From IMG/VR virus record IMGVR_UViG_3300034082_000804, positions 55,874 through 75,873 of that record: a stretch of DNA of 20,000 bases; one strand, 5' to 3'. Positions 1 through 20,000 of this stretch are shown piece after piece. Each line of letters begins with the position of its first letter. Positions within the stretch are counted from its first letter, which is position 1. Under the pieces are notes generated by a model. It saw only the letters and a program-made list of their open reading frames with translations. It was not told the DNA's origin and ran no database searches. This stretch comes from an uncultured virus (IMG/VR IMGVR_UViG_3300034082_000804). Taxonomy: Duplodnaviria; Heunggongvirae; Uroviricota; Caudoviricetes. A program made the translations under genes and the position numbers.

Positions 1-123
1 CAAAAATATATTGATGTTGAACACAGCATGGCTAAATTTATTCCAGCAGACAAATTAGTTGAATTGGACGTTGTTGGCCTACAAGGCAACATTGCTCCAA
101 ATGGCATGATGATCATCGACTAA
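1..123 (+). CDS. 3' end of an upstream hypothetical protein (partial)
   Basis: Frame 1 is open from base 1 (QKYIDVEHSMAKF...NGMMIID*). Its TAA at 121-123 overlaps the next ATG (TAATG). Confidence 0.75.
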   Translation, partial: QKYIDVEHSMAKFIPADKLVELDVVGLQGNIAPNGMMIID

Positions 124-1049
124 TGAAAAACATCCTAATCATTGGCGGTAATGGTTATGTTGGATCTAGACTAAGGCAAGTATTGGCACAGACCTACACT
201 GTAGAAAGTGTAGACTGTTGCTGGTACAACTATGATGAAACGTCTAAGAGAACTGACTACCACAAACTTGATGCTACCTATCTAGGGCAATTTGATGCTG
301 TAGTTTTACTAGCAGGCCACAGTAGTGTAGCAAGCTGTGTTGGTCCTATTGCTAGTCCGTGGTTAAACAATGTTACTAACTTTACTAACCTAGTGGCTAA
401 ACTAAGTTGGAAAGATATTCCGTTGATCTATGCTAGTTCAGCTAGTGTATACGGCAACAGCCTACCTGGGCAACTGTTTACTGAAGACAACCGTCAGTTT
501 ATTCCTGTGAACAATTATGACATTACCAAATATACCTTAGACCTAGAAGCCAAAGTTGCCATTGGCAATGGGCAACCTGTAATTGGTCTACGCTTTGGTA
601 CAGTCAACGGTTGGGCACCTAACCTACGTGCTGATGTAATGATCAATGCTATGTATGATGCGGTTAGAACACAAGGTAAAATCACAGTAACTAATAAACA
701 TATCAATCGTGCCTTGCTAGGCATTGAAGATCTGTGCCGTGGCATTGCTCGGTGTATCGAACAGCCAGTGAGTGGTATCTACAATATGGCCAGTTTCAAT
801 GCCACAGTTGACTATATTGCCGCCACTGTGGCCAATGAACTAGCTGTGCCTGTAGTTGATCGTGGTAAGACTGCTAATGCCTATGACTTTGGCCTAGACA
901 CTACATTATTTGAACAAACGTTTGGCTTTACATTTACTGAAACTCCTAGTACAATAGTTAATAGCCTAAAAGAAAAATATGCGGACGCACACATTGAACG
1001 CCGCGATAATTACATGACATATCAATGGGAAAAAGAATATGATCGATAA
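123..1049 (+). CDS. NAD-dependent epimerase/dehydratase (extended SDR, nucleotide-sugar modifying)
   Basis: N-terminal GGNGYVG Rossmann motif, YASSASVYG, catalytic YxxxK (YDITK), LRFGTVNG. Confidence 0.9.
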   Translation: MKNILIIGGNGYVGSRLRQVLAQTYTVESVDCCWYNYDETSKRTDYHKLDATYLGQFDAVVLLAGHSSVASCVGPIASPWLNNVTNFTNLVAKLSWKDIPLIYASSASVYGNSLPGQLFTEDNRQFIPVNNYDITKYTLDLEAKVAIGNGQPVIGLRFGTVNGWAPNLRADVMINAMYDAVRTQGKITVTNKHINRALLGIEDLCRGIARCIEQPVSGIYNMASFNATVDYIAATVANELAVPVVDRGKTANAYDFGLDTTLFEQTFGFTFTETPSTIVNSLKEKYADAHIERRDNYMTYQWEKEYDR

Positions 1050-2253
1050 CGCAAAAGAATTAACCGAGTGCCTGTGCTGTGGAAGCCAGCATTTAGAATT
1101 AACTCTAGACCTAGGCATACAGCCAATGGCCAATAGTTTTATTAAAACAGAAGAAGAAGCCGAGCTAACATTCCCATTGGTGTTAAATCGTTGTACAGAA
1201 TGTAGTCATTTACAATTAAGTCATGCTGTTAATCCAGACCTACTATTCCGCAACTACCTGTATGTAAGCGGTACTAGTCAAACACTTAAAGACTACTTTG
1301 ATTGGTTTGCTAACTACAGTTTAGGATTCTTTAGCGAAAAGCCTAAGTCAGTGTTGGACATTGCCTGTAATGATGGTACACAGTTAGATTCATTTAAAAA
1401 GATTGGCTTAACTACCTACGGTGTTGACCCAGCAACCAATCTACATCCAATCAGTAGCAAGAATCATGAAGTTATCCTAGATTACTTTACAGCGGCTCAC
1501 GTAGAAGGATTAAAAGCCAAGAGCATTGATATTATCAATGCGCAGAACGTATTTGCGCACAACGACTATCCTTTAGACTTTTTACTACAATGTAAAGAAA
1601 TTATGCATGATAACAGCGTCTTGTTTATTCAAACTAGTCAAGCTGACATGGTTAAGAACAATGAGTTTGACACTATCTATCACGAACACCTAAGTTTCTT
1701 CTGTGCTAACAGCATGAATGAACTAGCTCGTCGTGCTGGCTTAAATTTAATTGACATTACTAAAACACCAATCCATGGTAATAGCTATGTGTTTGTGTTT
1801 AGTAAACATCCTAGCACAGATGGCAAAGTTGAACAGGTACTAGCAGAAGAACGTGTCGCAGGGTTACAAACACCGCAAACATACATCGACTATGCTCGCA
1901 AAGCTCAACAGGTTGTTGTTGACTTAAAAGAAGCTATTGCTGAATATCGCAGTCAAGGTTATGTAGTTGCTGGCTATGGTGCGGCTGCCAAAGGTATGAC
2001 ATTACTTAACTTTGGCAACATTGACCTAGACTTTGTTATTGATGACAATCCGCTCAAACAAAGTTTATTCTGTCCAGGTGTACACACTCCTGTGGTATCA
2101 ATTGATGTATTAGATGAATGTCAGGATCTTAATGTAGCATTTGTTCCTTTAGCATGGAACTTCTTCACAGAGATAAGTACAAAGATCAAAACAAAACGTG
2201 ATAAACAAGGCGATGTGTTTATCCGTTATTTCCCAACTATAAAGGTAGAATAA
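1039..2253 (+). CDS. NDP-hexose C-methyltransferase (zinc-binding N-terminus, SAM domain, C-methyltransferase C-terminal domain)
   Basis: CLCC...LDLGIQPMANSF...CTECSHLQL zinc domain; VLDIACNDG SAM motif; FDTIYHEHLSFF; GYGAAAKG; LAWNF. Confidence 0.9.
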   Translation: MIDNAKELTECLCCGSQHLELTLDLGIQPMANSFIKTEEEAELTFPLVLNRCTECSHLQLSHAVNPDLLFRNYLYVSGTSQTLKDYFDWFANYSLGFFSEKPKSVLDIACNDGTQLDSFKKIGLTTYGVDPATNLHPISSKNHEVILDYFTAAHVEGLKAKSIDIINAQNVFAHNDYPLDFLLQCKEIMHDNSVLFIQTSQADMVKNNEFDTIYHEHLSFFCANSMNELARRAGLNLIDITKTPIHGNSYVFVFSKHPSTDGKVEQVLAEERVAGLQTPQTYIDYARKAQQVVVDLKEAIAEYRSQGYVVAGYGAAAKGMTLLNFGNIDLDFVIDDNPLKQSLFCPGVHTPVVSIDVLDECQDLNVAFVPLAWNFFTEISTKIKTKRDKQGDVFIRYFPTIKVE

Positions 2254-2255
2254 GA

Positions 2256-2918
2256 ATGACCGCAGAAGAACTAGTACAGGCACGCATTGAAGCGATTGCC
2301 AATAAAGAAATATTAGCCAACAGCCAAATGAGTGAATACATTAAACCACTAGCAGAATATGCTAAGGGCTGTGATCACATCACCGAGATGGGTGTGGCAA
2401 TTGTCTGTAGTACATGGGCATGGCTAAGTGCTAAACCTAAACGACTAGTAAGTGTAGACATTGATCACTTATGTCCAGTAGACGAAGTGCGTGGTGTAGC
2501 CAAAGACCTAGGCATTGACTTTGAGTTTGTTGCTGGTGATACCAATCATGGTGTTACAGCAGAGTTAAACAAACATTGCCCATGGCTAAACAACGAAGAA
2601 CATCGCGGTGAATGGAATGCTGGTAAACCAATTCCTTACTACAACTGCGAGCCCACTGATTTACTGTTCATCGACACTTACCATCACTATGCTAGCCTAG
2701 CACGTGAGTTTGAACTACACGCACCCAAGGCTAAGAAATACATCATTCTACATGACACAGTAACATTTGGTCGTCGTGGTGAAGGTGATGACCATAAAGG
2801 TCTAATGGCTGCTGTTGAAGAATTCTTAGCGGCTAACCCACAGTGGGCCACTGAAAAGGTATATGAGTCAGCACCTGGCTTGTATATTATGAAACGTGTA
2901 GGACCAGATCCAGTTTAA
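2256..2918 (+). CDS. Class I SAM-dependent methyltransferase (Methyltransf_24-like)
   Basis: ITEMGV...ST, VSVDID, DLLFIDTYHHY, YIILHDT motifs. Confidence 0.75.
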   Translation: MTAEELVQARIEAIANKEILANSQMSEYIKPLAEYAKGCDHITEMGVAIVCSTWAWLSAKPKRLVSVDIDHLCPVDEVRGVAKDLGIDFEFVAGDTNHGVTAELNKHCPWLNNEEHRGEWNAGKPIPYYNCEPTDLLFIDTYHHYASLAREFELHAPKAKKYIILHDTVTFGRRGEGDDHKGLMAAVEEFLAANPQWATEKVYESAPGLYIMKRVGPDPV

Positions 2919-2919
2919 C

Positions 2920-3669
2920 ATGAAGAAAACAATTCTTTGTCATTTCTATAATGAAGAGTACATGCTACCATGGTTTTTAAATCACCACAAGGAGATTTTT
3001 GATCATGGTATTATGATTGATTATCACAGCACTGATCGTAGTCGCGAGATAATTAAAGAAATATGTCCAACGTGGGACATTGTAACTAGTCGTAATCCAA
3101 ACTTCCAAGCAGACACAATTGACTACGAAGTTATGGACATTGAGCAGTCAATCGAAGGGTGGCGCATTTGTCTTAATGTAACAGAACTATTGATTGGAGA
3201 TTATTCAATCTTAGACGAACAGCCAGGGCAACACTTACTACCTAGCGTCTTTTTTGTAGATTGTGACAGAACAAGACCAGTTAGCCAAGATAGGCCTTTA
3301 TACGAGCAAAAGACAGATGGCTTCTCCTTTGACCAATATTTCCGTGAACGCCGGGCTCGTAGCATTCATAATGTTCCTGTACAGTATCCTGTACCAGGCA
3401 GACACTATGAAAATTATACCACGGACAAGTTGGTTGTATTCTATTACGGATGGTGCCCGTTTAATGATCTAGCACTAGCACGTAAGCTACAGATACAAAC
3501 ACAGATACCGTTAGTGGATCGTCAACGTAATTGGGGCTTCCACCATATTACCAATAAAGAAACACTTGAATATCGATTAGAAAATGAGTTTATGCCTAGG
3601 TGTAGAGACTTATCAGAGGAAATCAAACAGTATGTCAATAAGCACAAAGATCTTTCAAATATACTTTAA
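2920..3669 (+). CDS. Glycosyltransferase family 2-like protein
   Basis: N-terminal FYNEEYMLPWFLNHH...MIDYHSTDRS GT-A signature. The usual DxDE motif appears replaced by NVTE. Confidence 0.7.
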   Translation: MKKTILCHFYNEEYMLPWFLNHHKEIFDHGIMIDYHSTDRSREIIKEICPTWDIVTSRNPNFQADTIDYEVMDIEQSIEGWRICLNVTELLIGDYSILDEQPGQHLLPSVFFVDCDRTRPVSQDRPLYEQKTDGFSFDQYFRERRARSIHNVPVQYPVPGRHYENYTTDKLVVFYYGWCPFNDLALARKLQIQTQIPLVDRQRNWGFHHITNKETLEYRLENEFMPRCRDLSEEIKQYVNKHKDLSNIL

Positions 3670-4465
3670 GCCAGAGCTAGAGCAACATTGTGATCCGTTG
3701 TTTACTCCGTTGGATAACACTAGTAATCCGCGACCAGAACTACGTGAGTGGGATGTCTGGGATAGAGAACATGATCGTATCCTAGCTGAAAACTTGGACC
3801 ATTGGGGTTACGTCAGCTGGAAGTTTAAAGATAAAACAAACTTGACAGCGCAACAGGCCTTGGCACACATCACAGCCAATCCGGGGTTTGATGTTTATCT
3901 GTTTAACCCCTGTATCTTAAATGAAGCAGTATTTGCCAACAGTTGGGAACAAGGTGACATACATCATCCGGGTATTAGTGATATTGGTAATATGTTTTTT
4001 GCTAAACTAGGCTACGAAGATGTTGATGTTAAAAGTATTTTATTAGATCGTACTCGTACAGTGTTTGCTAACTACGTAGTTGGTAATCGTAAATTTTGGA
4101 CAGAGTTTATGGATTTTAGCCGCCAGCTGTTTACAGAAGGTGCCAAGGATCCACAGTTCCGACATTTGGTATTTGGCGAGGGATTGAGTAACTATGCTCA
4201 CGACAAGAGTCTACCAAACTTTACATTCTTAATTGAAAGATTAATTCCTACATTCTTAGAATTAGGTGAATATAGTGTTTGTCCATACACATATACACAC
4301 GATACAATACCGGCCAAATATGAACCATATTTTGCTGATATTATGGCACTTTCGGACCTGAAATCGTCAGTAAATGCCTATGAAAGTGATGTTTTATTTA
4401 ACATCTGGAACCACTATAGAGCTAAGTTCTTAAATGATAATCCAGGTATTTTAGGTTTAGAGTAG
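3632..4465 (+). CDS. Hypothetical glycosyltransferase-like / polysaccharide-associated protein
   Basis: Start moved from 3584 to ATG 3632 (GAGGA at 3616-3620; MSISTKIFQIYF). Motifs LDN...ELRE...WGYVSWKF...FLIERL resemble proteins from glycan-synthesis clusters. Confidence 0.55.
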   Translation: MSISTKIFQIYFKPELEQHCDPLFTPLDNTSNPRPELREWDVWDREHDRILAENLDHWGYVSWKFKDKTNLTAQQALAHITANPGFDVYLFNPCILNEAVFANSWEQGDIHHPGISDIGNMFFAKLGYEDVDVKSILLDRTRTVFANYVVGNRKFWTEFMDFSRQLFTEGAKDPQFRHLVFGEGLSNYAHDKSLPNFTFLIERLIPTFLELGEYSVCPYTYTHDTIPAKYEPYFADIMALSDLKSSVNAYESDVLFNIWNHYRAKFLNDNPGILGLE

Positions 4466-7750: not shown

Positions 7751-8773
7751 ATGACAGGTTTTGTTAAAATTAAAAATGGTACTTATCGTAATCAAGCGAT
7801 TACAGATGAAGTATTTCCTCTAGTAAAACAATTTCAATTAGGTAGCAAAGGTGGTTTTATCACTGTAGACGGCACTGGTCGTTTTGGCAAGGATAAAATA
7901 CGTGTTACTATCTCTAGTCCTACAGAGTACGAACTAGTAGACGCAACAGAATACACAGGCGAAGTAGCTACAGCAGGTGTAGACACACATAGCAAGCAAA
8001 CAGACGAAGAACGTATTGCTGAAATTGGCTTACGTTTTGAAATGCTAGACGAAATGACCAAAGCAGTATTGAACGGTGACATTCGTGCTATGATTGTAAG
8101 TGGCCCTCCGGGTGTTGGTAAAAGTTACACAGTAGAAAATCAAATTGACCGTGCTAACTTGTTTCAAAACATTGCCAACGCAAAACCTAAACACACTGTG
8201 GTTAAAGGTAGTGCTAGTGCTATTGGTTTGTACAAAGTATTGTACGAATACAGTGACGCTAACAGCGTTATTGTGTTTGATGACTGCGATAGCATCTTGT
8301 TTGACGACGTTAGTTTGAACTTGCTTAAAGGCGCATTGGACAGTGGTAAGTCACGTAAAATTAGTTGGTTGTCGGAGTCACGTGTATTGAAACAAGAAGA
8401 CATTCCTAACAGTTTCCAATTTAAAGGTAGTGTAATTTTTATCACTAACTTAAAGTTTGATCAAGTTAAGTCAACTCGTTTGAAAGATCACTTAGAAGCA
8501 CTACAGTCACGCTGTCACTATTTAGATTTGACGTTAGACACTATGCGTGATAAAGTATTGCGTATTAGACAAATTGCTAAAACTGGTCAATTGTTTGAAG
8601 ACATGGGCATTGGCGAAATTGGACAAGATATTATTATCGATTTCTTAGACGCTAACAAGAACAAGTTCCGTGAAATGAGTTTGCGTATGGCAATCAAAGT
8701 AGCACAGTTATACAAGAGCTTTCCTAACACTTGGGAAAACATGGCTAAGACAACTTGTATGAAGATTGCGTAA
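7751..8773 (+). CDS. AAA+ family ATPase
   Basis: Walker A GPPGVGKS, Walker B VIVFDDCD, sensor-1 IFITN, ALQSRC arginine-finger motif; AAGGAG RBS. Confidence 0.88.
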   Translation: MTGFVKIKNGTYRNQAITDEVFPLVKQFQLGSKGGFITVDGTGRFGKDKIRVTISSPTEYELVDATEYTGEVATAGVDTHSKQTDEERIAEIGLRFEMLDEMTKAVLNGDIRAMIVSGPPGVGKSYTVENQIDRANLFQNIANAKPKHTVVKGSASAIGLYKVLYEYSDANSVIVFDDCDSILFDDVSLNLLKGALDSGKSRKISWLSESRVLKQEDIPNSFQFKGSVIFITNLKFDQVKSTRLKDHLEALQSRCHYLDLTLDTMRDKVLRIRQIAKTGQLFEDMGIGEIGQDIIIDFLDANKNKFREMSLRMAIKVAQLYKSFPNTWENMAKTTCMKIA

Positions 8774-9421: not shown

Positions 9422-11041
9422 ATGAAAACAGACATTCAAATCAATCAATCAGCAGACCTACTACCAATTACAGCCGTTGCCGGTTCTATTAATGTACGAG
9501 ACGAACAGTTAGAAGTGTATGGTAGTAGGAAAGCTAAACTAAACATAGAAGCACTTGCTGACCGTCCTGGTCGAGATAGCAAGTTAATCTTAGTAACAGC
9601 TATTACTCCGACTCCCGCAGGTGAAGGTAAAACTACCACAACTATTGGACTAGCAGATGGCCTACGTAAGTTAAACTACAAGTCAATTGTATGCCTACGT
9701 GAACCTGCGCTAGGTCCAGTGTTTGGTATGAAAGGTGGAGCAACTGGTGGCGGCTATGCGCAAGTAGCACCAATGGAAGACATTAACCTACACTTTACAG
9801 GTGACTTCCATGCTGTCGCATCAGCTCATAACCTACTAGCTAGCCTCATAGATAATCATTTACATTGGGGTAACAGGCTCAATTTAAACACTAACAACAT
9901 CACATGGAAACGTGTAAGCGACATGAACGATCGTGCGTTACGCGACGTTTGTGTAGGTCTGGGAGCCCATAACAGCGTTACACGACAGTCAGGATTTGAC
10001 ATTGTAGTGGCGTCAGAAGTAATGGCTATCCTATGTTTGGCCAACGACTTCAAGGACTTAAAAAAGCGTTTAGGTAAGATCACTGTAGGCTACACACAAG
10101 ACGGTAAGCCTGTTACAGCTAAAGATCTTAAGGCACATGGTGCTATGGCCGCATTACTAAAAGAAGCCGTTAAACCTAACCTAGTACAGACCTTAGAAGG
10201 CACTCCTGCGCTAGTACACGGTGGTCCATTTGCCAACATAGCACATGGTTGTAACAGTGTTATTGCTACTAAGCTGGCTATGAAGTTAGCTGACTACGTA
10301 GTAACTGAAGCAGGCTTTGGTGCTGACTTGGGTGCTGAGAAGTTTATTAACATTAAGTGTCGTAAAAGCGGTCTTAAACCTGACGTAGTAGTGCTTGTAG
10401 CAACAGTTAGAGCCGTTAAACATCAAGGTAACTACGACAACCTAGATAAGCATATAGCCAACATTAAGACATGGTATAACCTGCCTTGTGTAGTTGCTAT
10501 TAATCGTTTTAAAGATGATACTGACCTTGAGATTGCGGAATTAATTGAGCACATCAAAGAAACATTTGACATTGAAGCAGTTGAATGTACACACTTTGCT
10601 AATGGTGGCGATGGTGCCACAGACCTAGCACACGAAGTTGTTATTGCTATTGATCGATCAAAACATCAGATGGCGCTGACCTACGAAGATGATGATACAC
10701 TGTGCGATAAGATTGAGCAAGTAGCTCGTAAAATTTACGGTGCTTACCATATAACTATGGATGCCAAGGTCACTAAACATTTAGAAGAACTACAACGAGA
10801 TTATGGACATTATCCTGTTTGTATTGCTAAAACACAAAGCAGTTTCAGTGATGATCCCGCTAATAAATTAGCCGCAACTGAAGGACATGTCTTAACAGTG
10901 CGTGAGTTAAAACTATGTACGGGTGCTGAGTATATCGTAGCAGTCTGCGGTAACATTATGACCATGCCAGGCTTACCAGAACGACCAAACGCAGAAAAGA
11001 TCAGTATCAATTCTAAAGGTGAGATCACAGGATTAGATTAA
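9422..11041 (+). CDS. fhs: Formate--tetrahydrofolate ligase (FTHFS)
   Basis: [94 protein letters not shown]. Confidence 0.97.
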
Positions 11042-15414: not shown

Positions 15415-15890
15415 TGGCCACAGATTTTAACAGTCCGCTTTACATAGGTAATGAAATGGCGGCCTTTGATCGTAAGGATCGTAAGTACTATGATAAGTTC
15501 ACTGATGAAGAACGTAAACAGTTTAGCACGTATCTAATGTTGCGCTATGGTGCTAGTGTAGAAGGTAGTAATGATCTACAGGCCTACTATCTAATGGCCA
15601 CAAATGAACGTGTAAATAAGAACTTCTTTGATCTAGGCAAACATCCTAAACTACAGTGGTTACTATGTTCTACAGTTAGTCCCGGCATGGGCAAGCAAAA
15701 GCACTACTGGCAGGCTAGTAAAAAGAAAGAAGGCGGCAATAACAAAGCAGAAAAGTTCCTAGCAGAACTTTATCCAGAACTTAAACAAGATGAAATAGAA
15801 TTGTTAGCGGCAATCAATGATAAAAGAGATATTACAGACCTGGCAAGAAAACACGGGCTCGATGACAAACAAGTCAAGTCCAAGTTATAA
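15414..15890 (+). CDS. Putative clamp-loader small subunit (T4 gp62-like)
   Basis: FSTYLMLRYGAS...NERVNKNFFDL...LQWLL...KQKHYW...KK...FLAELYP pattern and size resemble Phage_clamp_A proteins. Confidence 0.5.
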   Translation: MATDFNSPLYIGNEMAAFDRKDRKYYDKFTDEERKQFSTYLMLRYGASVEGSNDLQAYYLMATNERVNKNFFDLGKHPKLQWLLCSTVSPGMGKQKHYWQASKKKEGGNNKAEKFLAELYPELKQDEIELLAAINDKRDITDLARKHGLDDKQVKSKL

Positions 15891-16560
15891 GTGTAGATAT
15901 TGCGATAAAGAGTTTCGTAAAGAATCTACTCTTTCGGCGCATCTTTGTGAAACTAAACGTCGTTACCAACAGGAAAAAGAAATTGGTGTACAGTTTGGGC
16001 TACAGGCATATCTACGATTTTATGAAATGACACAGGGTTCAGCTAAACTCAAAGGCTATAAGGAATTTGTAGACAGTCCTTACTACAGTGCCTTTGTTAA
16101 GTTTGGTCGTCACATGGTGGCTATACGTGCTGTGAATCCGCGTATGTTCATTGAGTATGTGATTAAAGAAAATAAGAAACTTGACCATTGGTGTCATGAC
16201 AAGGTCTATGTAGAATATCTACACACATACCTTAAGAAAGAAGCAGTTCAAGATGCGATTGAACGTGCCCTAACAGAAATGCAGGAATATACAGATGAGA
16301 CTAAAATGCTTGCCAGCTTCAATGACTATTTTAGATATGGCAATGAGAATAGGATTTGCCATCATATTGCCAATGGTCGTGTTAGTCCTTGGATTGTTTT
16401 TAATTGTGATAGCGGGGTCGAATTTCTTAGTGGACTCACTGAAGAACAGATTGCTATCATTCTTCCGTGGATAGACCCGGACTTTTGGCAACGTAGGTTC
16501 CAAGACTATCTGGCAGATACAGAGTGGGTTAAACAAATTCTTAAAGAGGCAGGCTTATAA
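15862..16560 (+). CDS. Hypothetical protein with an N-terminal zinc finger
   Basis: Probable start ATG 15862; YKCRYCDKEFRKESTLSAHLC is a C2H2/C2HC-type finger. Confidence 0.75.
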   Translation: MTNKSSPSYKCRYCDKEFRKESTLSAHLCETKRRYQQEKEIGVQFGLQAYLRFYEMTQGSAKLKGYKEFVDSPYYSAFVKFGRHMVAIRAVNPRMFIEYVIKENKKLDHWCHDKVYVEYLHTYLKKEAVQDAIERALTEMQEYTDETKMLASFNDYFRYGNENRICHHIANGRVSPWIVFNCDSGVEFLSGLTEEQIAIILPWIDPDFWQRRFQDYLADTEWVKQILKEAGL

Positions 16561-16751
16561 TGGAAGAAGTTGTAGCATTATTGAATGAAATCAAGGGCGA
16601 GATAATTAGCCTACAAACTGAATTGTTGTTGGTGAAGTTTGCTATTGAAGAAGTAGAACGCCGTACAGAATATATTTCAGAGAATTTACATCTAGCACAG
16701 GACAATGCTCCTATGACAGCTCAAGGAAAGTTACGTGTTGAAAAGTTTTAA
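16560..16751 (+). CDS. Small coiled-coil hypothetical protein
   Basis: TAATG coupling to the previous gene; heptad pattern. Confidence 0.65.
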   Translation: MEEVVALLNEIKGEIISLQTELLLVKFAIEEVERRTEYISENLHLAQDNAPMTAQGKLRVEKF

Positions 16752-17325
16752 GTCCGACGTTGACATTGACTTTGCTGATCGTGAGCAGGTATTGGCAGTA
16801 TTAGATACTACATCGGCTAGTATTATTCGTGACGGCAAGTTAACCAAGCATAACACAGGTGTCTATGCTACTGATATACCTACAGATCCGTTTACAGGAT
16901 TCTCTAGTTTAGATTATAACGATGCTGAAGAGCGTGGTTATATGAAGTTAGACTTTCTTAATGTAAACTTATATAAACAGGTTAGGGATGAAGCACATCT
17001 AGTTGAACTAATGCGTGAACCTGATTGGGCTAGATTATATGATCCGGCAATATGTCAGCAGTTAATTCACATTAACAATCACTATGATACATTACTTAAA
17101 ATGCCTGAGCCTGTGGATACTATTCCTAGACTGGCTATGTTCCTAGCAGTTATTCGTCCAGCTAAAAGACATTTAATTGGTAAGACTTGGCGAGATGTTG
17201 CGGCTGATGTGTGGACTAAACCTGCGGATGATGGATACTACTTCAAACGTGCCCATGCCGTTTCCTACGCACAACTTGTAGTCGTTAATATGAATTTATT
17301 AGTAGAACAACAAACGCAATCATAG
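16735..17325 (+). CDS. Miniature DNA polymerase III alpha (DnaE, family C)-like protein
   Basis: SDVDIDFADR, KHNTGVY, GYMKLDFLNV, LAMFLAVIRPA and YYFKRAHAVSYA match DnaE palm/fingers motifs in order, in only 196 aa. Confidence 0.85.
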   Translation: MLKSFKSDVDIDFADREQVLAVLDTTSASIIRDGKLTKHNTGVYATDIPTDPFTGFSSLDYNDAEERGYMKLDFLNVNLYKQVRDEAHLVELMREPDWARLYDPAICQQLIHINNHYDTLLKMPEPVDTIPRLAMFLAVIRPAKRHLIGKTWRDVAADVWTKPADDGYYFKRAHAVSYAQLVVVNMNLLVEQQTQS

Positions 17326-17360: not shown

Positions 17361-17981
17361 ATGATAACATATCCAAGAAAGTGTCCTGTATGTGAATACA
17401 TAGCAAATAATCCTGCTATGTATTCGTACCATAAACAAACTCATCAATCTATTCCAGCAGATACCTTATGTCATTTTGGCTGCGGTAATACAGCTACCCA
17501 TCGAAATACTGGCGGCAAGTATACTTGCAAATCAAAATATCAAGAGTGCCCTTCTTATATAGATCAATTAAGTAATCGAACAAAGAAAAGTTGGGAAGGC
17601 GCTATTAAAAGAAAAGAAGAAACAAAAAAATGTTTCTATGAGCATTGTAGCGGAAACGAAATTGCTCGCAAAAAAGCAAAACAGTCTATTAAAGAAAAAT
17701 GGGGAGATTTTACCCCAGAACAAATGAAAGATTTTAGGCAATATGCTAGACGTATTAGAGTTAGAGCACAGCGATGGGCAAAAGCACAAGGATATAGTTT
17801 AGGTCAGCGAACATATCATGTTGATCATAAGTTTAGTATATGGGATTCATGGTTGGCTAGTCTGCCAGAAAGTGTAGTAAATCATCCTGCCAATTTAAGA
17901 ATTTTAGAAGCGAATGAAAATTCATCTAAAGGTGCTAAGAGTTTATACACTCTTGAAGAACTATTAATGTTAACTAACTAA
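17361..17981 (+). CDS. HNH endonuclease with N-terminal zinc-binding motifs (putative freestanding homing endonuclease)
   Basis: YHVDHKFSI...NHPANLRILEANENSSKG HNH core; CPVC...H...H and CHFGCG...C...C motifs; upstream CTAAATA at 17349-17355. Confidence 0.8.
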   Translation: MITYPRKCPVCEYIANNPAMYSYHKQTHQSIPADTLCHFGCGNTATHRNTGGKYTCKSKYQECPSYIDQLSNRTKKSWEGAIKRKEETKKCFYEHCSGNEIARKKAKQSIKEKWGDFTPEQMKDFRQYARRIRVRAQRWAKAQGYSLGQRTYHVDHKFSIWDSWLASLPESVVNHPANLRILEANENSSKGAKSLYTLEELLMLTN

Positions 17982-18352
17982 CCTACTTTGCGAATCAGTG
18001 TAATACTACGGCGCTTACTGCGTTTCTGAGCTATTTCTTTTAGACTAACGTAAGGGCCGTGCTGTATAAGAACGTCCTTGCTGTTGAATGTTTTTAAACA
18101 GGGTCTAAACTCTACCCAATCTAATTTTAGAAATACATTGATAGGCACTAGCCTATTACTTTCCCACCACCACTGATCTGCCAGCGACAAAAAACGTTCT
18201 TTTTGATCTAGCGTGCGTAGAGCTGAAAAATCGTAGATTGTAGTGATGATCTCATCTGCGTTTTGTACAATGCCAATGTAGTCATTACCTCCGTAGGTCA
18301 GATAGCTAATAAATGGGTATTGGTCTAATAAATTCTTGTAACTATCTTCCAT
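17978..18352 (-). CDS. Hypothetical protein
   Basis: Only convincing minus-strand gene. It fills the gap between two + genes, has a WWWESNR motif and a basic tail, and has TATAAATA upstream on the minus strand. Confidence 0.8.
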   Translation of the reverse strand: MEDSYKNLLDQYPFISYLTYGGNDYIGIVQNADEIITTIYDFSALRTLDQKERFLSLADQWWWESNRLVPINVFLKLDWVEFRPCLKTFNSKDVLIQHGPYVSLKEIAQKRSKRRSITLIRKVG

Positions 18353-18415: not shown

Positions 18416-18890
18416 TCAGAATATTTTCACTGTTCAGATTTTGGACTATAACGATCCTGCCATTTCTGACAGAAGGAACAACATCGTGTATCAAAGACCA
18501 ATCGAAATTTATCGCGGGGCAGATAACCCTATTGTTATCAAATTTAAGAACCAAGATCAAAAGACGGCTAATATTGCTGGATTGACATTTAGTGGTTACA
18601 TTATTGATTATTTGAAAGGCAATGTTGTATCAAACGTGAGTGTAACGGTTAGTAATGTCAGCACAGCTACAGCAAATTGTATGCTGACTAGTGATTTTAT
18701 TAACACACTACCGCAGAGCAGATACAAACTTGCGTTCCTAAAATACAATGGTGTACATGAAACACCTACTTATAGTGATGATAACTATGGCGTCTATGCT
18801 GAACTAAGAATTAATCCAGCATTTGAAACAGACGCATTTACATCAAGCACTACAGACTACAGTGGCAACGTTGACCTAGGTATAATATAA
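18390..18890 (+). CDS. Putative virion structural protein (beta-rich, baseplate/fibre-attachment-like)
   Basis: GTG start with AAGGA RBS after a late-promoter motif; IYRGADNPIVIKFKNQDQK; coupled to the fibre gene. Confidence 0.6.
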   Translation: MPVITSYLYQNIFTVQILDYNDPAISDRRNNIVYQRPIEIYRGADNPIVIKFKNQDQKTANIAGLTFSGYIIDYLKGNVVSNVSVTVSNVSTATANCMLTSDFINTLPQSRYKLAFLKYNGVHETPTYSDDNYGVYAELRINPAFETDAFTSSTTDYSGNVDLGII

Positions 18891-20000
18891 TGCAGGCACC
18901 AAGAAGATTACAGTTACGAAGAGGCAACACAGCGGCAATTAGTACCTACGTTGGTGCCCCTGGTGAATTGATAGTTAATACCGATACTAATACCTTATAT
19001 CTTCATAACGGAACAACGGTTGGGGGCGTCGCTACTTCAGTTAATACATCTAGTATTACAACAAATGTTTCGGCGTTACAAGGTAATGTAGCAATATTAC
19101 AAGGTAATATACTAACTTTACAATCTGGAATTACAACCTTAACTAGCAACGCAGCTGTACAATCAGGCATACTAGCAACATTGTTAGCCAATGCCGCAAC
19201 ACAAGCAGGTGACCTAGCAACCTTAACAAGTAATGCCGCAAGTCAAGCTGGTGACATAGCAACCATCTACGCAAACTTAGGTGCGGTAAGTGGAAGCATA
19301 GCAACATTAACTAGTAATGCCGCAATACAGGCAGGCCTACTAGATACATTAACAGGTAATGCAGCTAGCCAAGGCGGAGAACTAGCTACCTTAGTAGCTA
19401 ATGCCGCAACACAAGCGGGTGCGTTGGCTACTTTAACTAGCAATGCCGCTAGTCAAAGTGGAACACTTGCCGACCTAATAGCCAATGCCGCAGTTCAGGC
19501 AGGACTAATTGCTGGTAGTACAGGCACATACGGTAATGCTAATGTGGCTGCTTACTTACCAACATACTCAGGTAATATTGCAGGTAATATTGCTAAGAAT
19601 GGATACACCTGGACATTTAGCGAAGCTGGCGCCACAACATTCCCAACAGGAGTTAGATTATCAAATGCCAGGGGTGCAAACACAGTTAACTTTACTACTG
19701 ATGTTGATAAATCATTTCAGATTGAAACAGGAACTGCCATTAGTGGTAAATTATGGAGCTTTGGTCCAGATGGTAATTTGACTCTGCCGCAAAATGCCAA
19801 CATTAACTTTTCCAATGGTGTTAGCATACTAACCGGGTTAGGTAGTAGCACCTATGGCAACACACAAGTAGCCGCATACTTGCCAACATATGATGGCAAT
19901 ATTGCGGCTAATATTAGCAAAGCAGGCTACACTTGGACCTTTGGCACAGATGCTGTCCTAACTTTACCTTCGGGCGCAACTATTTTAGAAAGCGGGTATG
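18890..20000 (+). CDS. Tail/capsid fibre-like protein with Mtd_N domain (partial, runs off window; not in ORF track)
   Basis: MQAPRRLQLRRGNTAAISTYVGAPGELIVNTDTNTLYLHNGTTVGG matches the major tropism determinant N-terminal motif. It is followed by coiled-coil and YGNxxVAAYLPTY repeats, and the frame is open to 20000. Confidence 0.85.
   Translation, partial: MQAPRRLQLRRGNTAAISTYVGAPGELIVNTDTNTLYLHNGTTVGGVATSVNTSSITTNVSALQGNVAILQGNILTLQSGITTLTSNAAVQSGILATLLANAATQAGDLATLTSNAASQAGDIATIYANLGAVSGSIATLTSNAAIQAGLLDTLTGNAASQGGELATLVANAATQAGALATLTSNAASQSGTLADLIANAAVQAGLIAGSTGTYGNANVAAYLPTYSGNIAGNIAKNGYTWTFSEAGATTFPTGVRLSNARGANTVNFTTDVDKSFQIETGTAISGKLWSFGPDGNLTLPQNANINFSNGVSILTGLGSSTYGNTQVAAYLPTYDGNIAANISKAGYTWTFGTDAVLTLPSGATILESGY
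19139..19510 (+). repeat. Coding tandem repeat, about 9 x 42 bp (14 aa, consensus LTSNAAxQAGxLAT)
   Basis: Units start at 19139, 19181, 19223 ... 19475, with recurring AATGCCGC. Confidence 0.9.
19526..19942 (+). repeat. Duplicated 31-aa module in the fibre protein
   Basis: TYGNANVAAYLPTYSGNIAGNIAKNGYTWTF (19526-19618) and TYGNTQVAAYLPTYDGNIAANISKAGYTWTF (19850-19942), 324 bp apart. Confidence 0.9.

Follow-up and report, generated by a model that had tools for sequence, protein, structure and literature searches.

A 196-residue protein encoded on a T4-like jumbo phage contig as the probable C-terminal unit of a split, minimal DNA polymerase III alpha subunit

The stretch of DNA analysed here (the window, 20,000 nucleotides) forms the final 20 kb of a 75.9-kb IMG/VR contig whose completeness, 22% by CheckV, points to a full genome of about 345 kb. 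The contig is T4-like in content and encodes a tail sheath, a tail tube, TerL, a gp32-type SSB, UvsX, UvsY, and UvsW. The gene under study (16735..17325, + strand) codes for a protein of 196 aa, hereafter the C unit, that is identified by its match to the PHROG family phrog_11778, by its predicted fold, and by profile comparisons. The initial annotation had described an intact ORF with a ribosome-binding site, and this holds: the ORF is uninterrupted and opens with a GTG codon, and a Shine-Dalgarno-like AAGGA (16723..16727, +), read directly in the sequence, lies 7 nt upstream of it, while a TTG one codon after the GTG is an equally possible start. On the 5' side and on the same strand lie a 63-aa ORF (16560..16751, +) and a 247-aa gene of phrog_11058 (15817..16560, +; E 1.3e-56), whose product carries an N-terminal C2H2-like zinc finger with a weak zf-C2H2 match below the Pfam cut-off. 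On the 3' side, a 206-aa ORF (17361..17981, +) is followed by a convergent 124-aa gene of phrog_11637 (17978..18352, - strand; E 1.1e-32).

The arrangement of these genes is partly conserved and partly peculiar to the lineage of the window. Specifically, among 80 loci sharing 73% identity or more with the window, phrog_11058 lies upstream on the same strand in all 77 with at least 800 nt of room, and phrog_11637 lies downstream on the opposite strand in all 65 with room, adjacent to or overlapping the C-unit gene in 57. The same gene order is found in RaK2, PA5oct, and Phosso, where it continues into a virion protein, a primase, and a DnaB-type helicase. Since the loci compared are close relatives and gene order is widely kept among T4-like phages, synteny by itself is not enough to make the products of phrog_11058 and phrog_11637 partners of the C unit. 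The 63-aa and 206-aa ORFs are confined to five near-identical loci of the window's lineage (5/77 and 5/58 loci with room, respectively). The former has no family match in PHROG or Pfam; the latter is Cys-rich, matches phrog_23051 (E 1.1e-5), has no Pfam match at E<=1, and is absent at the same site in the closest near-complete relative, G014. In our own reading, the C-terminal His/Asn pattern of the 206-aa product resembles an HNH nuclease, and the ORF would appear to be a mobile nuclease gene that entered between the C-unit gene and the convergent phrog_11637 gene. Near the C-unit gene, promoter-like and terminator-like sites are no commoner than in shuffled sequences, the motif TATAAATA, which we take to be the T4 late-promoter consensus, occurs once, no more than expected by chance, and the window contains no tRNA genes.

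Other genes of the window give a broader picture of the phage. A full-length formate-tetrahydrofolate ligase gene (9422-11041, +; Pfam FTHFS, E 3.3e-235) has relatives by tblastn in only 40 of 50,697 phage records; none of them reaches 80% identity, and they include Prevotella megaphages and gut-sample records named 'Bacteriophage sp.'; it is a rare auxiliary gene of one-carbon metabolism or nucleotide supply. A cluster at 123-4465 (+) codes for an NAD-dependent epimerase/dehydratase, a C-methyltransferase with a zinc-binding N-domain, a methyltransferase-like ORF, and a family 2 glycosyltransferase-like ORF, with further epimerase, methyltransferase, and radical-SAM genes upstream of it on the contig, and may serve the modification of DNA or of virion glycans. 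A fibre-like protein (18890-19999, +), open at the contig end, starts with an Mtd_N domain (E 5.4e-13) and continues with many near-repeats of the 'LTSNAA.QAG' type. Lastly, a 340-aa AAA+ protein (7751-8773, +) matches phrog_1250 (E 8.2e-85), with weak matches to clamp loaders and DnaC-like proteins, and is possibly a replication loader of the same module as the C unit.

The C unit belongs to a large and well-conserved family. It matches the 197-position profile of phrog_11778, annotated 'DNA polymerase', with E 2.5e-63, residues 4-193 aligning to positions 4-195. Its homologues fall into 6533 clusters at 90% identity, with lengths of 107-343 aa, and those at E<=0.001 form 415 clusters at 50% identity. 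By tblastn the C unit is matched in 96 phage records, and the phages among the matches listed are large and of the RaK2, 121Q, PA5oct, Atu_ph07, and Phosso kind; identity is 41-52% to members from cultured phages and 65-68% to members on two near-complete IMG/VR genomes. In one IMG/VR genome of 357.6 kb rated 100% complete (G015, locus L178), the C-unit match carries one in-frame TAA, which may reflect a sequencing error, a damaged copy, or recoding. The Pfam search of the C unit returned no family even at E<=10, so that no DnaE model was matched, and a six-frame search of the contig gave no match to PF07733 or PF17657. The link to the replicative polymerases emerges instead from the family profile, which, when compared with the PDB, reaches E. 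coli DnaE (2hnh) with E 6.9e-6, family positions 54-139 aligning to residues 539-641 of the chain and positions 151-179 to residues 740-769.

All five motifs named in the initial annotation are present in the order given there, namely DVDIDF, K38-HNTGVY, K71-L-D73-F-L, L137-AVIRPA, and Y168-YFKRAHAVSYA, the last containing F170, K171, R172, and H174, and their co-occurrence is far above chance in view of the phrog_11778 match. Across an alignment of 81 diverse homologues, D8, D10, K71, D73, R141, and P142 are invariant (81/81), D12, H39, and H174 are each present in 80, G42 in 79, and K171 in 74, while position 172 is K or R in 78. The aspartate triad D8, D10, and D73 is thus conserved in every homologue aligned. 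The assignment of these residues to those of E. coli DnaE, whose catalytic aspartates we take to be D401, D403, and D555, depends in part on a naturally fused homologue, P0161, described below. Through the alignment of P0161 to 2hnh, the DVDIDF motif (16756..16773, +) places D8 and D10 at the metal ligands D401 and D403, and D12 at D405. The initial annotation had proposed D10, D12, and D73 as the catalytic residues; D73 stands as the third catalytic aspartate, and the first two must be moved to D8 and D10, because the alignment via the fused form equates these with D401 and D403. With this pair, the distance from the second to the third aspartate becomes 63 residues, not the 61 counted earlier, as compared with 152 in E. 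coli DnaE. The profile alignment to residues 539-641 equates K71 and D73 of the KLDFL motif (16945..16959, +) with K553 and D555, and R141 and P142 of the IRPA motif (17152..17163, +) with R639 and P640 of the fingers. The alignment to residues 740-769 equates F170, R172, and H174 of the FKRAH motif (17242..17256, +) with F756, K758, and H760, also in the fingers.

Structure prediction, which the initial annotation had called for as a comparison with DnaE, points in the same direction. The AlphaFold (AF2) model of the C unit is highly confident (mean pLDDT 96.8, pTM 0.89), and the best 10 PDB rows returned by Foldseek are all Pol III alpha chains, with weak E-values (best 3.2e-3). In the VIA re-alignment, the top 12 rows are all C-family polymerases, and the next, unrelated row has a Z of 4.0. 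The model superposes over its whole length (1-196) on residues 395-784 of E. coli DnaE 2hnh (Z 8.4, rmsd 4.2, 190 residues aligned), and it fits PolC 3f2b (Z 9.6, rmsd 3.6, 191 residues) and Taq Pol III alpha 3e0d (Z 9.5). The C unit is predicted to fold like the latter half of the DnaE palm, joined to cut-down fingers. In the superposition nothing corresponds to DnaE before residue 395 or after residue 784, nor to the thumb and part of the fingers. That the PHP domain, thumb, clamp-binding region, and OB domain are absent, as already noted from the ORF, is borne out by Pfam, by the PHP search, and by the placement of the model on DnaE 395-784. The small size of the C unit may reflect the multiple internal deletions first proposed for it, or it may be ancestral.

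To our knowledge, every Pol-beta-like nucleotidyltransferase has a GRGS nucleotide-binding element ahead of its aspartate strand. In E. coli DnaE the corresponding nucleotide-binding residues are R362-G363-S364, and the C unit starts at the equivalent of residue 395, just past them. Since just seven residues precede D8, the element cannot be on the C unit. The initial annotation had put forward, as its headline, a self-sufficient miniature DnaE that retains all the catalytic motifs, and the absence of the GRGS element speaks against this. A 196-aa C unit acting alone as a complete, minimal family-C nucleotidyltransferase would account for the presence on one chain of the three catalytic aspartates and the fingers motifs, all invariant, and for the confident fold predicted for the isolated protein. 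It is nonetheless a very improbable reading, given that the model begins at E. coli residue 395 with the GRGS element missing, and that this element is found on a separate, co-occurring protein that is joined to the C unit in natural fusions. The fallback offered alongside that headline, one piece of a split enzyme, proves to be the right one.

The separate protein, hereafter the N unit, is a product of about 170 aa belonging to phrog_11127. Its best-characterised example here is ORF162 of RaK2 (172 aa), which has a six-frame Pfam match to PF07733 at positions 19-95 (E 3.4e-9) and whose C-terminal stretch reads '...GLGRGSSVSS...DVNEFLKY'. The invariant residues of the N units include W-G-x-G-R-G-S-S-V, and most of 68 distinct N-unit ORFs from IMG/VR end no more than about 3 residues from an EFL[KR]-type tail; the C-terminus of the N unit corresponds to E. 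coli N393. The distribution of the two units is closely matched: the N unit occurs in 93 phage records against 96 for the C unit, the host tallies being nearly the same, and the pair is present in all three complete cultured genomes considered, where the genes are separated by 33.7 kb (RaK2), 44 kb (PA5oct), and 224 kb (Phosso). Of 12 large IMG/VR contigs selected for the presence of an N unit, 9 also carry a C unit, as do 6/8 of those rated at least 90% complete. Protein, PHROG, and family-profile searches found no C unit on the other three of the 12, two of which (G007 and G013) are rated at least 90% complete. G007 and G013 also lack phrog_11058, phrog_11637, and UvsW, and the whole block from UvsW to the C unit is probably off-contig in both; with this entire block absent, the two genomes are poor evidence for an N unit existing alone. 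On the 75.9-kb source contig of the window, 22% complete, no N unit was found, nor was one found on five related contigs, of which one is near-identical and 122 kb long. The surroundings of the N unit show some conservation of their own. At the N-unit loci L089, L090, L091, L098, L122, and L123, which come from RaK2, PA5oct, and Phosso and from three genomes of IMG/VR, a protein of 113-174 aa with a motif around 'N-A-[RKN]-G-D-x-[LI]-G-x-G-G' is encoded downstream, and a small helical ORF upstream of the N unit is common to RaK2 and G014.

The two units are found joined in nature. Three fused clusters, P0161, P0271, and P0272 (375-376 aa), match phrog_11127 with their residues 8-180 and phrog_11778 with residues 190-374; they were recovered by exhaustive search, a word-index search for longer homologues having given none. 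P0161 is colinear with residues 319-417 of E. coli DnaE across the junction of the N and C halves, and its alignment sets the split point between E. coli N393 and about P394-P400, that is, where the N unit ends and the C unit begins. At the level of sequence, these natural fusions confirm the relationship of both units to DnaE. The predicted fold of P0161 (mean pLDDT 60.0) is confident in the N half and falls below a pLDDT of 50 over residues 183-282, only 3 sequences covering the C half. The position of the fused forms relative to the split ones was addressed through separate trees of the two halves; alignments that combined the fused forms with both units placed the N units wrongly onto the C half and were discarded. 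The N-half tree was rooted on two bacterial-type fragments and carries a long-branch warning, and its sample lacks the split-size proteins that lie closest to the C half of the fused form. In this tree, the fused forms branch outside the whole set of 47 split N units sampled (SH-aLRT 94). In the C-half tree, which holds one of the three fused rows, the rows nearest to the fused form are split-size proteins, and no grouping is strongly supported.

Moreover, the C-unit gene bears the signature of purifying constraint that the initial annotation had anticipated in suggesting selection over decay. Pairwise dN/dS values were computed by the Nei-Gojobori method for the window together with 80 homologues from IMG/VR (3240 pairs, of which 1165 were left out because of saturated synonymous sites), and the median is 0.07-0.15 in every dS bin. 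From these substitution patterns, the gene is judged to be actively maintained and not a decaying fragment. The same values bear on the notion that the C unit is what is left of a bacterial dnaE, once captured and now in decay, or that it serves the replisome as a scaffold without catalysis. The C unit is indeed far shorter than DnaE, and the N unit is termed 'truncated' in the relevant passage of a 2017 phage paper (PMC5259590), yet the low dN/dS, the fact that intact homologues of this length number in the thousands, and the invariance of the catalytic residues leave this notion with next to no probability, the lowest of the alternatives weighed here.

The enzyme does not appear to be the sole polymerase of these phages. 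The search for another replicative polymerase and for PHP partners, proposed in the initial annotation, found a family B polymerase (PF00136) in all the relatives checked (3/3 cultured and 5/5 from IMG/VR), and no PHP domain (PF02811) in any of the five relatives' genomes searched for it, the control being positive in 14/14 genomes. On the rest of the 22%-complete contig, the PHROG matches of 47 ORFs include no family B polymerase. The presence of the family B polymerase and the absence of PHP in relatives agree with what the pertinent sections of Iyer et al. 2021 (PMC7824862) report.

Taken together, these observations very probably mean that the gene of the window codes, in a T4-like jumbo phage of group 2.2, for the C-terminal unit of a two-gene, minimal, DnaE-like Pol III alpha, which docks with the N unit to work as a templated polymerase beside the family B replicase. 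The N unit, ending exactly where the C unit begins, would be encoded elsewhere in the genome, beyond the limits of the contig, and would supply the triphosphate-binding GRGS loop. The C unit would in turn contribute the Mg2+ ligands and the fingers contacts to the template and the incoming nucleotide, so that docking of the two chains would create one active site. The resulting heterodimer may be a distributive, template-dependent DNA polymerase of low processivity that operates alongside the family B replicase, its most likely task being to fill gaps, to repair DNA, or to extend primers. The last of these roles is our addition, by analogy with Bacillus, in which DnaE hands over to PolC.

A two-chain enzyme could also be imagined to perform non-replicative chemistry, such as untemplated tailing, the synthesis of a signalling nucleotide, priming, or protein-primed synthesis. 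An enzyme without thumb, clamp-binding region, and OB domain in phages that already own a family B replicase would fit such an activity, and the literature searched yielded no bench test or other biochemistry of the split minimal Pol III alpha. Nonetheless, the residues matching R639/P640 and K758/H760 of DnaE are invariant or nearly so, the C-unit model superposes whole on polymerases solved with DNA (3f2b, 3e0d, 4iqj), and the corresponding gene of RaK2, PA5oct, and Phosso lies in a replication module, a few genes before the primase and helicase. Non-replicative chemistry is on this account improbable, and the new roles first suggested for the protein (protein priming, tailing, signalling nucleotides) find no support in this analysis.

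Within the preferred interpretation of a templated, two-chain polymerase, a bolder proposal can be formulated, namely that the mini Pol III alpha, with its two chains, serves the replisome as a genuine second polymerase, extending primers or filling gaps and handing over to the family B replicase, and that the 375-aa fused form is the smallest natural C-family polymerase and near ancestral. This proposal is speculative and rather unlikely as a whole. If it were true, T4-like jumbo phages would run a mixed fork with two polymerases, one of bacterial type and one of archaeo-eukaryotic type. The family is the most compact form known of the bacterial replicase core, with about 370 residues in two chains, as compared with 1160 in one, and it is widespread at the level of the 90%-identity clusters counted above. 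An account of how two chains share an active site, and of the work done by a second polymerase beside a T4-type replicase, would inform both the evolution of replisomes and the engineering of minimal polymerases.

The family of the C unit is already known, and the gene of the window is one more member of it. The relevant passages of Iyer et al. 2021 (Viruses 13:63, PMC7824862) describe, from sequence, a minimal and split DNA polymerase III alpha in the group 2.2 (RaK2-like) jumbo phages and propose for it the synthesis of one strand, or repair; pieces of it had been noted earlier as small or truncated Pol III alpha in sections of two other papers (PMC6102473, PMC5259590). In comparison with the C-terminal unit described by Iyer and co-workers (RaK2 ORF124, PA5oct gp264, and Phosso '437'), the window gene shares family, length, motifs, and gene neighbourhood. 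It differs from the C units of RaK2, PA5oct, and Phosso in being bracketed by the lineage-specific 63-aa and 206-aa ORFs and in lying on a contig without a partner N-unit gene. In comparison with the bacterial DnaE and PolC enzymes (2hnh, 3e0d, 3f2b), the predicted C unit has in common the fold of the second half of the palm and of the core of the fingers, and it keeps the equivalents of the aspartate triad, K553, R639-P640, and K758/H760. Conversely, only about 190 of the roughly 390 residues of bacterial DnaE in the span 395-784 have counterparts in the C unit, which is also devoid of the beta-clamp site and the tau-binding region in addition to the PHP, thumb, and OB domains. A further difference from bacterial DnaE concerns the palm itself, which in the phage enzyme is split over two polypeptides, such that the GS motif and the aspartate triad are not carried by one chain and the GRGS element resides on the separate N unit.
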